DNA of 64,000 nt. Origin: Camelus dromedarius (taxonomy: Eukaryota). The number at the start of each line of letters is the position of its first letter. Position 1 is the first letter of the stretch. Below are positions 6,766-35,432 of this stretch, piece after piece. A program made the position numbers and the translations under genes. The notes below the pieces were generated by a model. That model had not been told where the DNA came from, did no database searches, and saw only the letters and a list, made by a program, of their open reading frames with translations. The stretch is from the NCBI RefSeq assembly GCF_036321535.1, contig NC_087436.1:11222001-11286000 (forward strand), written 5' to 3'.

Positions 6766-6877
6766 ATGGAGCTTCCATTCACCAACCTGGAGATGGCCTT
6801 CATTCTACTGGCTTTTGTCATCTTTTCCTTGTTTACTCTGGCTTCCATCTACACTGACCCAGAGGAGAGGAACGAAG
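6766..6877 (+). CDS. SMIM31: SMIM31 first coding exon (exon 6744-6877; ATG at 6766), encoding [37 protein letters not shown] plus 1 nt
   Basis: Acceptor ttctgttgcag|G at 6743/6744. In-frame upstream TGA at 6745-6747. Donor GAAG|gtaaaa at 6877/6878. Contains a ~20-aa hydrophobic TM segment. Nearly identical to the recalled human SMIM31 N-terminus [30 protein letters not shown]. Confidence 0.95.
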
Positions 6878-6997
6878 GTAAAAAGAGCGCCTTGAGAAAG
6901 CCTCTGTTTCCTGTCCCCACCCAATCATCGTTCCTGATGGTTTGATTTGGTTTAGTTTCTGTTCTGTGTGTGAGAATGAGTTTGCTTTGCAGTATGG

Positions 6998-7023
6998 GGT
7001 GTGTGTGTGCGTGTGTGTGTGTG
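6998..7023. repeat. (GT)n microsatellite, interrupted
   Basis: gtgtgtgtgtgcgtgtgtgtgtgtg. Confidence 0.85.
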
Positions 7024-7879
7024 CAAGAGAGTTGGCTTGTTAAATGACCTGAAATATTTACCATGGCAACTTTACCATTATTCATTAAGAAAGGTTTGGA
7101 AATAGAAAAGATCATTCACTTGACTTTTAACTCCAGAATTTGGCAGATCTTATGTCTTGAATTTTGTATATACATATACACACATAATTTGTCTTTCTCC
7201 AGCCTCCCATCCCTGCCCCTCATCCCCATCCCCCACCAGAAACTTTCAAAGTCTTTAAAGGTAATTTTTCACAGCCCAAATGCAAATTCACAAGAAACAA
7301 ATTCCATCATAGTGCCTGCATATGGTGTGTGTGTGCAGGTGTGTATTCATTCAACTACACATGGGAAGTTACAGGATTAAAGGTTTGTTCTAATGCCCAA
7401 GATGTCAAAGCCCAAACTTTTGAAAACTACGTAGAAGTATTTTAAAAACTCAACACTACATGTTTGCTCCTTGCCAGTGATAACAGTTGTTGGCTACAGT
7501 ATGTTATTTAAATGTGCTTGGTATTTCACTGTAGTTCAAGACCCACTAAGTTTCATGCAAAATTAATGGTAACTACCATTTTGGGGGACAAAAATTATAC
7601 ATAGATATATATCTATATAATATATATAGTGTATACCAAGGAAATAATACATATTTGTAAAGAATAAGATAAAATCATAAAAATAATTATGTTTCCTAAA
7701 ATCGTGATACTTCTCCATCAATCACTGGCTACAAAAGAAGTGCTGTCTGTGAAATACAGTATTGTTCTCTGTCATATAGACATACGACACTTGCAGAAGT
7801 AGTAAACAGAAAGCCACAGTAAACAGACATTCCAATTCATGCTGACACGCAGATTGAGAGTCCAAAAGTCTTTTTCGTG

Positions 7880-8280
7880 CTCCACATTGTGTTAGTTTGA
7901 AATGGGTCTGGCTGAAAGAAACATAAAACCAAAATAACAGTGTCTTTAGCTAGATAACGATGTGTTCCTCTCATACAGAAGGGAAGCCGGGGTCTAGAAA
8001 GTTCCTGGCTGACATACACTGCGTGTGGTATCGGGTCCGGGTTCTCTCCCATCTCCCGCTGCAGCTCCCGGGTCAGGCACTGACCCGGCTGGTCCATCTC
8101 CCACTATCTGAGATGCATCTGGTCAGCAAGAAGATGGAAGAGAGCACACCTCTGTCTTTGAAGGGCACTCCCAGAATCTGCACATCCCACTCCCCTTTGG
8201 CCAGAACGTAGTCCATGGCGGTACCCAAAGGAAAGCTGGGAGATGTAATTGTTATTCTGGAAGGCGTGTGCCGAGCTGAA
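7880..8280. mobile_element. Old MaLR (MLT1-like) LTR remnant
   Basis: aaaataacagtgtctttagctagataa...cccctttggccagaacgtagtccatggcggtaccc...ctgggagatgtaatt resembles old MLT1 subfamilies. Confidence 0.5.
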
Positions 8281-9101
8281 ATTTGGGTTTGTGTTCCTGC
8301 AGGAAGAAGGGCACAGCCAGCGGTGTCTGCCAGACACGCAGACTCGTAAGGACGCAGCCTCTATGAGGCTGGTAGTCATTAAAGTGGGGAACCTTCGAGC
8401 TCGAAGGAATGTTAAGAGAGCATCTCATTTACTGATACTGGACCAGAAATAAATATCAGAAAGACACATTGTGCTTGGGGCCCATCATAAACCAACAAAT
8501 ATGCATTTCTGGGCGTCACACCCGACCAGGTGTCTTTAAATAAACCCTCCCGCCCACATTATTCTGGCTTTCATCTCTGGTGAAGAAGCACTCAGCAACT
8601 ATTCACGCTTCAGACGTGACAACAGAGACCCAAAAATGTTTTTAGTGAGTTTCTCAGCTGCTCAGTTAATGAGCAGAAGAGCCCAAACTAGAGCCCAGGC
8701 CCCCAATTCTGAGTCCCTGCACCCTCTCTGCACCCTCCTTGACTCCCCAGTTATGATCCTTGGGTTCCAGGAGCCAAAGGCTGGGGCCAGGCCAAGACAT
8801 TTACCTTTTGTTTGCATTTTTGAATCCCATGCTTCTTTTTCTTCAACTCTGTTCCACCTGATTTGATGTGTACTTTCCAAGCTCAAGCAATTCCTCCATC
8901 TGAACGCTATGACACTCACAGAGCAGGAACTAACTGCTCAGGGATTCCCATCAAAGAACACCACTGGCCGGGCCCTTGCCTCCTCCTCATGACCACCAGC
9001 TCAGTCACAGGCACAATTTTGCCTGAGAGTATGAAAGATATACCCTTTCCTAAATGTAATAAGACTTATGAGTAAAATCTACCTTCACTGAATGGCAGAG
9101 C

Positions 9102-32655: not shown

Positions 32656-33299
32656 TAATTAATTATTAATTGTAAGTAGTTAATAATGCATCTAGTAGGT
32701 ATTTCCTGATTGACTGAGCTTGCTAGGGCTGCAGGAGGTACGAGTGACTGAAGCACCCTGTCTGTCCTCACGGATGGCACAGACTAGGCTGGGGCAGCAC
32801 CACGCTCCTCTCTGTCCGGCTGCTGCTCCCACAGGACTCAGACACACAGCAGAGAAATCCCGGCCTGAACTCCTTGTGCATCACTGCCATTCGCTCTCAG
32901 AGGGTGCTATGCTTTCAGAAATGTGTAGAAATACCCAGCTTGTGGGCCAGTTCGCTACAGGCTCAGAACTGACTGCTACAATTTCTGAACCAGCAGGCTC
33001 GAAATGTAAATGAACTTGCATCACTCCCTCTGGATAATCCCCGAAAAGTCCTCTAGCAGGCACACGATTTCCATAGTCACTGCTGCTTTCAGCCCACTCT
33101 GTGGGAATTATATCCTGGGACATCACTCAGTCTATTCTTTTTCTTCGATTTGTGAAATTCCTGGTTCATTCACAGCTGCCAAAGGTGTTACTGTAGTGAT
33201 GATTATAAACCTGAATTCCTTCAATAGTGAGGAATCTATAAACACACATCTCTTGCTTCCTCTTTCCTCCCGCATCATTCCTCCTGCCTCTTTTGTAAG

Positions 33300-34365
33300 T
33301 TGATGTTGGGGAAGCCGGCTCTCCATCCTTGGACCTCTTCACTTCTCTGTCTGTGCACACTCCCTTGGTGACCCCTTACATCCAGTCTCTTCGGTTTTCA
33401 ATACCATCTGTAAGCTGGTGAGTCTCAGATTTGCACTCCCAGCGTAGACCTCTTGTATGCTCAGCACCTCTGCTTCAAAGCCTAATTTCTGATAATGCTC
33501 CCCAAACCACATCCATCTGTAATTTTTCCCTCCAAGTTGTTGGCAACTCCATCTTTCCAGTAGTTCAAGACAAATATCTCTGTCTCTCATACCCCATATC
33601 CACACACACTGTCAGTAAATCCTGTTGGCTCTGGCTTTAAAATATAATGAGGATTTAATTACATCTTACTAAGCTTCCACTGCCACCACCCTGGCCCAAG
33701 CCACCATCATCTCTCACCAGGTGTCCTGCAGTAATCGATCATGTACTTCCCTGGCTCAAAACCTTGTCGTGGATTCCTAGTTCATTCAGAGTAAAAGCCA
33801 AAATCCCTACGATGGCCCGCAGAGCCAAGGGTCTCCCCCAGCCTTTGATCTCCTGTCCTGCCTCTCCCCGAGAGCCCTCTGACTGCACTGCCATCCTGGC
33901 TGTTTCTGGTCCAGTTTCACTCCTTAGGGTTTATTATGTTAAGAGGTCACAGTTCATTGTGAGTATTTCTAGACTTAAAAAAAAAACAACTATATACTTT
34001 CTCTTCTTCTCTGTGTGTATTTATCTGTTTATTTATTTATTTCAGTTTTTATTGTTTGTTTTTAACAAAAGTATGATTTTGCCACCACTGAGCCTTTTAG
34101 CCAAGTTCTACGCTTTTTTATGTAGCCCTCACTAATGTACTGTACATATTCTTATATATTAGCTTTGATTGTTATTTTGTCTCTCTCTCTCTTCAAGAAC
34201 TCTGTGATTTTAGGGGGTCTGGGGAGAAGGAGGCAGGGATCTGTGTTAATTTCATCAGTATCATTCACTGATGTATCTCAAGTATGAGAACAGATCCTGA
34301 GGCTGGAGGGGGCGGGGGAGCATGCTCCATAGTAACTGCTGAATGAATGAATGAATGCATGAAAA
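33300..34365 (+). mobile_element. L2 LINE 3' region
   Basis: ggcaactccatctttccagt...gtcagtaaatcctgttggctct...ccaccaccctggcccaagccaccatcatctctcacc; terminal (gaat)n at ~34340-34357. Confidence 0.8.
33910..34082 (-). repeat. Right arm of the inverted duplication, embedded in an L2
   Basis: See left arm; roughly 80% identical by eye. Confidence 0.9.
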
Positions 34366-34390
34366 TTAATGATGCTAAATCACATTTGCA

Positions 34391-34494
34391 TGGTGGTAGA
34401 GTGCTTGCTTAGCATGCATGAGGTCCTGGATTCAATCCCCAGTACTTCTATTAAAAATAAATAAATAAATAAACCTAATTTTTTTTTAAAAAAA
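34391..34494 (+). mobile_element. Vic-1-type SINE, 5'-truncated
   Basis: gtggtagagtgcttgcttagcatgcatgaggtcctggattcaatccccagtac followed by (aaat)n. Confidence 0.9.
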
Positions 34495-35334
34495 GGACAG
34501 TCTGAACGATCAAGTCTGACAGAAGCAGAACTTCAAAGCCATAAGCTGCTTTGAAGCTTACCCAATACAACTCATGTAAGAAATTTAGAAAACAGAACCA
34601 GAGAAGTAAAAAGATTTATCAGAAACCCTGCTGCTAGTTCATGGCGAAGAGTAAAGAAAATCTGGGTCTTTTGGTTTAGTGGGCTTTCCCCAGCTCTTCA
34701 CTGATTCTCTTGCCTATTCCCTAAGTTTAGCCTAGACTTCTTGAGTTGCTGGAGGACCGTCATAATTATACCTAAAGAATGTTTAACTGACTCCTCCCAG
34801 GAAACGTTGCCCAGTGCCTAAAGAAGTGATTTCGTTTGTACACTAGCTCCAAGGACCCCCCAACAATCAGAGATTGGCCACCAGACCTAATGGCAGTGGA
34901 TTCAGAGTACAGACTTTCAGGTCAGAGCACAGTGGACTCCTAGGATCTGTCACCAACCATCTTAAGTGCCCAGCTCTCTGTAGCCTCCTCTGCCGTCACA
35001 GATAACTTGTTTCTCACATGCAGTTAATTTTGACATCAATCTAAATGCTCACAGAGTTGAGAGGCAGTTCACATCTTACAAAGGACAGTATTAGCCTTCG
35101 TGGTATCGAACAGAAATGTCACCTGGGGAGAAACAAATGCTCGGTAGTCTCCTCTCAGTGGTCAGAGTTCTGCTTTCTCTTTGCCTTGTCCTCTTCCCTT
35201 AGGTGCAGTTCTTCTCCTGAACCCACAGGAAAATGATGCTAGTGAGGACCCACGTCCTTTAATAACCAAAGTTCATTTCTACCCTTCCAAATTGTTCATT
35301 CCCAACCCTTTTTTCTAAATTCTTTTTATTGTAG

Positions 35335-35432
35335 AGGAGGAACATCAAATAAAGGAAAAGAAAAAGAAAAGAAAAAAGTCTGGAAGGAAGAAAAATTGCT
35401 CAGAGGAAGAGCGTGAGATTGAAGCCATTTAG
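35335..35432 (+). CDS. SMIM31: SMIM31 last coding exon, encoding (E)[31 protein letters not shown]
   Basis: Long pyrimidine tract then ttttattgtag|AG at 35334/35335. Phase matches the upstream donor (G|AG=Glu). TAG at 35430-35432. Resembles the recalled human C-terminus [34 protein letters not shown]. Total CDS 112+98=210 nt. Confidence 0.93.

Follow-up and report, generated by a model that had tools for sequence, protein, structure and literature searches.

The question raised by this stretch of dromedary DNA (Camelus dromedarius, contig NC_087436.1, positions 11,222,001 to 11,286,000; "the window" is the whole stretch of 64,000 nucleotides) is whether two short coding segments, separated by an intron of 28,457 nt, form one gene and, if so, what its product does. 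With hardly any doubt, the gene is the camelid SMIM31 orthologue, and it is intact; in mouse its counterpart encodes the peptide EPRp. The SMIM31 product is suggested to be a single-pass membrane adaptor at epithelial cell junctions, a reading to which we give a probability of about 0.5. SMIM31 is already known as a gene through its mammalian annotation, support from PhyloCSF and detection of the mouse peptide. As a gene discovery the locus is of little weight, since it adds one more orthologue and corrects the 3' end of an alpaca model. The elements of the gene, by position in the window, are the following.

6766..6877, + strand: coding segment 1, 112 nt, from the ATG start to a GTAAAA donor; encodes a short acidic N-terminus, a transmembrane (TM) helix (about residues 7-29) and the start of an acidic linker
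6878..35334, + strand: intron, 28,457 nt, phase 1, GT-AG, read from the sequence
35335..35432, + strand: coding segment 2, 98 nt, preceded by a pyrimidine tract ending in TAG and closed by a TAG stop; encodes an acidic run, a polybasic run, Cys59, a second acidic run and the C-terminal Glu-Ala-Ile
35421..35432, + strand: last three codons and stop, Glu-x-Ile-COOH, a class III PDZ-ligand pattern by sequence only
6741..6743, + strand: candidate 3' splice site, CAG behind a short pyrimidine tract
35433..35934, + strand: probable 3' untranslated region with candidate poly(A) signals at 35549, 35645 and 35929

Joined through these sites, segments 6766-6877 and 35335-35432 sum to 210 nt, that is 69 codons and a stop, with the split codon G|AG giving Glu38. 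The last 60 nt of the intron contain a single AG, the acceptor's own, and no competitor. A preliminary description of the locus had proposed this in-frame joining through GT-AG sites, and its coordinates, phase and intact 69-residue open reading frame (ORF) were all reproduced. It had also spoken of a two-exon gene, which stands for the coding exons but probably not for the transcript. The candidate acceptor at 6741-6743 sits 22 nt upstream of the ATG, and in mouse the ORF starts at nt 345 in the complementary DNA (PMC6488594), which together suggest at least one upstream non-coding exon. The camelid gene is thus likely to comprise at least three exons, of which two are coding. Around the start codon (6760-6769) there is a T at -3 and a G at +4, and a mouse primer likewise has a pyrimidine at -3 (PMC6488594). 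Such a weak start context may restrict translation. Further candidate poly(A) signals were found at 36034, 36042 and 37182. Part of 35335-35900 was shared by 16 of 24 rows of sequencing runs, with 2 recorded as RNA and 8 guessed to be RNA; the two RNA-recorded runs held 0.43 and 0.06 of the sampled words, values that describe word content only and do not address the junction.

Orthology to SMIM31 is supported at the level of both exons. With the first exon and its read-through as query, 153 proteins were found at E<=0.01, and among the 120 of these listed the named homologues were nearly all SMIM31, with E values down to 5e-16 outside camelids. The spliced camelid product is identical to the Homininae protein at 54/69 positions, to narwhal at 62/69 and to horse at 60/69. 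Within exon 1 the identity is 32/37 to the Homininae record P0113 (29/30 over the first 30 residues) and 34/37 to both narwhal and horse, and the Glu count across the splice junction equals that of most mammals. The SMIM31/LINC01207 assignment of the preliminary description is thereby borne out; the gene it called hidden is absent from the ORF track only, and SMIM31 is annotated across mammals including alpaca. Like human SMIM31 (LINC01207, ENSG00000248771), the camelid gene has two coding exons, an N-terminal TM helix and an acidic-basic-acidic tail, but its product has 69 rather than 71 residues and stops where apes and horse go on with Glu.

The pairing of the exons was assessed by comparing nine foreign homologue tails with all six frames of the window. 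For eight of the nine, the second segment was the best match. Six mammalian tails scored 96-160 there against 42-55 in the best other frame, the bird tail 51 against 36 and the turtle tail 47 against 40, while the axolotl tail did not recover the segment in the six-frame search. Pairing by chance is therefore not a credible explanation. An exon-2-like tail was present in 61 of the 120 matches listed, and the others were read-through or mis-spliced models or had diverged non-mammalian tails. As many as 35 database models depart from the family sequence at this same donor, which comes behind the Asn-Glu codons, and since these are 35 of 141 close homologue models, the second exon seems often to be mis-annotated.

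The closest listed match, alpaca XP_031540521.1 (P0003), has 95% identity over 59 residues, including intron-derived sequence. Compared with window positions 6766-6942, this model continues past the donor into the intron and has no second exon; that its 3' end reads into the intron is reported here for the first time. It could be argued that this 59-residue read-through form is the true camelid product, or that the gene is decaying, as a camelid spliced form was not found among the matches listed (the best 120 of 153 and the best 120 of 166). We regard this as extremely improbable, given that the second exon shows no disruption, stays in frame and is 22-28/32 identical to its boreoeutherian orthologues (human-type, narwhal, horse, peccary and bat; 22/32 in Homininae and 28/32 in narwhal), that both splice sites are canonical and that the read-through tails vary from species to species. 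In other mammals, spliced forms of 68-71 residues sit on Logan contigs of 1-4 kb, which implies transcripts.

What the product does has been approached mainly in mouse. SMIM31 was re-annotated from a long intergenic non-coding RNA to a coding gene of 71 amino acids, conserved to coelacanth and high in gut, whose second coding exon escapes PhyloCSF detection (PMC6886504). Mouse EPR/BC030870 encodes EPRp, for which an antibody reveals an endogenous band of about 8 kDa in gut and breast; human-mouse conservation of the transcript is highest in the ORF (PMC6488594). EPRp with a C-terminal FLAG tag localizes to junctions between epithelial cells; ZO-1, cingulin, paracingulin, cortactin and MYH9 come down with it, and its overexpression makes cingulin staining straighter (PMC6488594). 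The earlier statement that the function is poorly characterised overlooked this work, namely the 8-kDa band, the junctional tagged peptide and the co-precipitated junctional and actomyosin proteins. The mechanism of the peptide has been called unclear (PMC11567935). A literature search, mostly of titles and outside subscription journals, returned no title naming a membrane partner of EPRp, and other supplements of PMC6488594 may bear on this point. SMIM31 resembles the TM micropeptides of the myoregulin type in being a short TM peptide of a former long non-coding RNA (lncRNA), with functions for both RNA and peptide (PMC6488594), but it differs from them in its long charged tail and in its junctional rather than sarcoplasmic reticulum location. 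Pfam and PDB searches gave no match of SMIM31 to these peptides.

The layout of the camelid protein agrees with that described earlier (one TM helix, an acidic run, a polybasic run, a Cys and an acidic tail), as confirmed by hydropathy and residue counts. The best 19-residue TM segment begins at residue 10 with a mean hydropathy of 2.58, seven acidic residues lie among residues 30-41 and eleven basic residues among residues 44-57, followed by Cys59 and the acidic tail. The narwhal orthologue, modelled with AlphaFold, has one helix predicted with confidence (residues 7-29) and a second, weak one (40-52), with a mean predicted local distance difference test (pLDDT) of 64.8 and block values of 94 and 81 across residues 11-30. 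The tail is looser than the TM helix, and Cys59 is retained in just 40/67 spliced-type homologues. A homodimer prediction run without an alignment scored 0.10 against a mark of 0.32 and weighs neither way.

In Pfam scans of each coding exon singly no family was matched, and the exon-1 read-through gave two TM matches at chance level. Nothing credible came from searching PDB sequences with the exon or with any of three profiles; one low E-value, to a designed repeat protein, was summed from nine 1-bit stretches and was discounted. In the ESM Atlas, the SMIM31 cluster itself scored 0.89 and every other cluster at most 0.79. Among these look-alikes was an Ost4 cluster at 0.75, which, together with the goblet-cell expression and mucus defect reported for EPR (PMC10250242), might suggest an accessory subunit of the endoplasmic reticulum or Golgi in secretory (goblet) cells, acting in the manner of OST4. 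The score lies under the tool's mark of 0.9, at chance level, and tagged EPRp was observed at junctions (PMC6488594), which makes this reading improbable.

The pattern of conservation in the TM helix was examined across the family. Searching 1.84 billion representatives with a profile returned 113 matches, all SMIM31-like on reading, and from ten proteins looked up the family was found to reach Xenopus, bowfin, sturgeon, teleosts and the chimaera Callorhinchus (P0162). In 37 members, hand-picked for diversity from about 240, no substitution occurs at Met1, Glu9 or Phe12, and Pro4, Phe5, Ile13, Ala16, Phe17, Phe20 and Ala26 hardly vary. The variability moment across the TM helix of these 37 sequences peaks at 100 degrees, a value reached by 60 of 20,000 shuffles. 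From these sequences, conservation between chimaera and mammals lies on one face of the helix, which is a new observation. A plain anchor would not need conservation with a helical period, and a binding face is therefore suggested. That jawed vertebrates have kept this face throughout their history suggests a specific membrane partner, one that the published pull-down does not name. The earlier claim of selection on the protein is also strengthened, by ORF conservation, re-annotation with PhyloCSF (PMC6886504) and retention of the TM helix to cartilaginous fish.

The conserved TM face might instead belong to a regulatory subunit of an epithelial channel, transporter or pump, a likeness raised in the preliminary description; such a subunit would act much as KCNE or FXYD proteins do. 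In this case one-sided conservation throughout jawed vertebrates is compatible with the proposal, as is gut-epithelial expression (PMC6886504), although no family match reaches threshold. We hold such a subunit to be possible, if somewhat unlikely. The lead to KCNE1 was a TM resemblance first seen by eye. KCNE proteins have a long, glycosylated extracellular N-terminal domain with N-glycosylation sites. SMIM31 has about 6 residues before its helix, and an early sequon (within the first 12 residues) occurs in 1/67 homologues. Residues 23-25, Phe-Thr-Leu, are the KCNE1 triplet (PMC11659587), but across the 37 family members Phe is found in 33, Thr in 13 and Leu in 31.

Weak matches to the Pfam family ISK_Channel (PF02060) were obtained for 7/26 members (best E 0.046), 3/12 and 4/37 (best E 0.065), and three of the four printed alignments begin at a common offset of 34 positions. 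Against this, the printed scores are at most 13.4 bits where the Pfam gathering score is 22.1, the window's own segments have no match, and unrelated TM families, MscL and connexin among them, are hit by a larger or a nearly equal number of SMIM31 members. No KCNE chain was present in 7 PDB matches at E<=10 (either profile) or in the 113 profile matches. SMIM31 shares with PF02060 a small single-pass architecture and has weak matches to it mostly in one register, and the camelid protein has a Phe-Thr-Leu in the mid-to-late TM helix, but SMIM31 falls below the family cut-off, has no ectodomain and has no PDB or profile match. Membership of the KCNE family is rejected on present evidence, and true descent from KCNE, a small part of the subunit proposal, is very improbable. 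In a literature search at listing level, SMIM31 and KCNE came together in one paper only as entries of a gene list. A plasma-membrane channel subunit of the KCNE/FXYD kind is also absent from the pull-down table as available (PMC6488594). Its rows "Trpm1/3/4" have masses of 28-33 kDa (supplementary file 4, PMC6488594), which would fit tropomyosins and not TRPM channels, and they are not taken as channel partners.

The other end of the protein bears on its location. Class III PDZ ligands have the form x[E/D]x-hydrophobic at a free C-terminus (PMC3257277), and the protein in the window, ending in Glu-Ala-Ile, fits this pattern. A [DE]-x-[ILVM] end was found in 28/65 spliced-type homologues against 1/35 intron read-through models, and birds, turtle and bowfin also terminate in this way. 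To the column of the camelid stop the 65 homologues contribute stop in 29, Glu in 16, Leu in 7, Gln in 4 and other residues in 9. As Glu, Leu and Gln each possess a codon differing from TAG by one base, the stop may be ancestral and repeatedly lost, judging from the protein letters. A class III PDZ-type end in many orthologues, which the published C-terminal tag would mask, is described here as a new sequence feature. Tjp1, Scrib, Afdn, Lmo7, Myo18a and Sipa1l1/3 are all, we take it, PDZ proteins. Each is listed in the pull-down table of the tagged mouse peptide (PMC6488594), although in that experiment the C-terminus lay beneath the tag.

Past the camelid stop, window positions 35430-35450 still align with the longer narwhal and horse C-termini, and a second stop follows four codons on. 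Ruminant-type proteins (P0031, P0060, P0128) differ in the tail that follows the basic run; theirs is similar to a different reading frame of the window's 3' sequence, and a lineage-specific frameshift is possible.

Taken as a junctional membrane adaptor, SMIM31 would work as follows. Splicing joins the two coding exons and the product is translated, as demonstrated in mouse and as we infer from the sequence for camelids. The single TM helix would be inserted so that the charged tail faces the cytosol and the short N-terminus lies outside. The helix face formed by Glu9, Phe12, Ile13, Ala16, Phe20, Phe23 and Ser27 would then pack on a specific, postulated membrane partner, with the one-sided conservation as the observed basis. 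Finally, the polybasic stretch and, in many lineages, the Glu-x-aliphatic PDZ-type end would link the complex to scaffolds at the junction and to the actomyosin of the cell cortex; the location and co-precipitation of the tagged mouse peptide point to this, and direct binding is presumed. In sum, the protein would favour the assembly of junctions and the barrier function of epithelia, those of the gut among them; the role in camelids is extrapolated from this.

Several points weigh against the junctional adaptor. Actin-binding proteins are a common pull-down background for basic baits. The mass spectrometry table of 44 rows consists mostly of myosins, spectrins and other actin binders, with few membrane proteins, and the junctional data come from one study of an overexpressed, C-terminally tagged peptide (PMC6488594). 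That this tagged peptide is still junctional implies that a free PDZ motif is not required there. The PDZ-type motif is not terminal in 37/65 spliced-type homologues, nor in teleosts; apes and monkeys append Glu-Leu, some rodent forms append Gln-Pro, and ruminant-type tails diverge. Kinship among the sequences means that the conservation counts and the shuffle test overstate significance. Lastly, RNA mutants with stop codons reproduce most effects on gene expression, CDKN1A and growth, including colony formation (PMC6488594, PMC10250242).

The stop-codon mutants would also fit a locus that acts mainly as the lncRNA EPR, with the peptide as a minor accessory. We judge this quite unlikely, as the ORF is the most conserved human-mouse region (PMC6488594), the TM helix is conserved to cartilaginous fish, and the stop-mutant tests in the available passages are overexpression in cell lines. 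Deletion of the EPR promoter and exon 1 in the colon impairs mucus and permeability (PMC10250242), and it presumably removes the peptide alongside the RNA. The knockout cannot separate RNA from peptide effects. In the available text of that paper, "peptide" occurs in five passages, on the introduction and a cell line (PMC10250242), and the word is absent from the main text of a preprint (10.64898/2026.04.28.719975) in the form available.

A wider proposal joins parts of both accounts: SMIM31, perhaps a distant relation of KCNE, would be a so far unrecognised regulatory subunit that dates back to the origin of jawed vertebrates. Its helix face would grip an epithelial channel or transporter, and its tail would anchor this to junctional PDZ scaffolds. 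This is unlikely. If true, loss of the protein would account for part of the mucus and barrier phenotype of the EPR knockout, which has been put down to the lncRNA, and a tandem paralogue would be a teleost addition to the family.

On sequence grounds, teleosts do carry a putative, unnamed SMIM31 paralogue, which is new here after a light search of the literature for it. Four teleost gene models (goby, piranha, medaka and moray) have a second SMIM31-like TM helix upstream of the normal start, and a profile of this helix matches the SMIM31 family with 96% probability (E 2e-9 over 30 columns). Five further stand-alone paralogue proteins of 49-71 residues (5/5 candidates; mackerel, catfish and three unnamed) were found in a search covering lengths 19-77. 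All of these records (P0168, P0169, P0172, P0155 and P0236-P0240) lie outside the window, and the 64 kb of the window hold no copy. The ESM Atlas gave no usable feature match for the fish paralogue, which may be a gene of its own, part of a fusion or an ORF lying upstream.

Elsewhere in the window, a candidate for an SMIM31 paralogue near 8376-8430 was rejected: it was the best non-SMIM31 match at 12.6 bits, compared with up to 11.8 bits in 20 shuffles, and has neither a TM helix nor a start. No neighbouring genes were recognised within the 64 kb, and no six-frame match was obtained there for short motifs of APELA, a peptide gene of this neighbourhood. Among metagenome contigs, 586 pattern matches for DNA homologues were obtained and 0 confirmed. 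Two open frames, at 49697-50206 (+, 170 codons) and 61250-61627 (-, 126 codons), have no Pfam match at E<=0.01 and resemble what we take to be C-terminal fragments of LINE-1 ORF2. The window also contains 11 tRNA-like copies (e.g., 11202-11273, 18308-18379, 35953-36025 and 63918-63989), 11 by Rfam and 10 by ARAGORN, mostly of the Ala type. As the 10 copies inspected are diverged and followed by A-rich tails, they are considered tRNA-derived short interspersed elements rather than tRNA genes.

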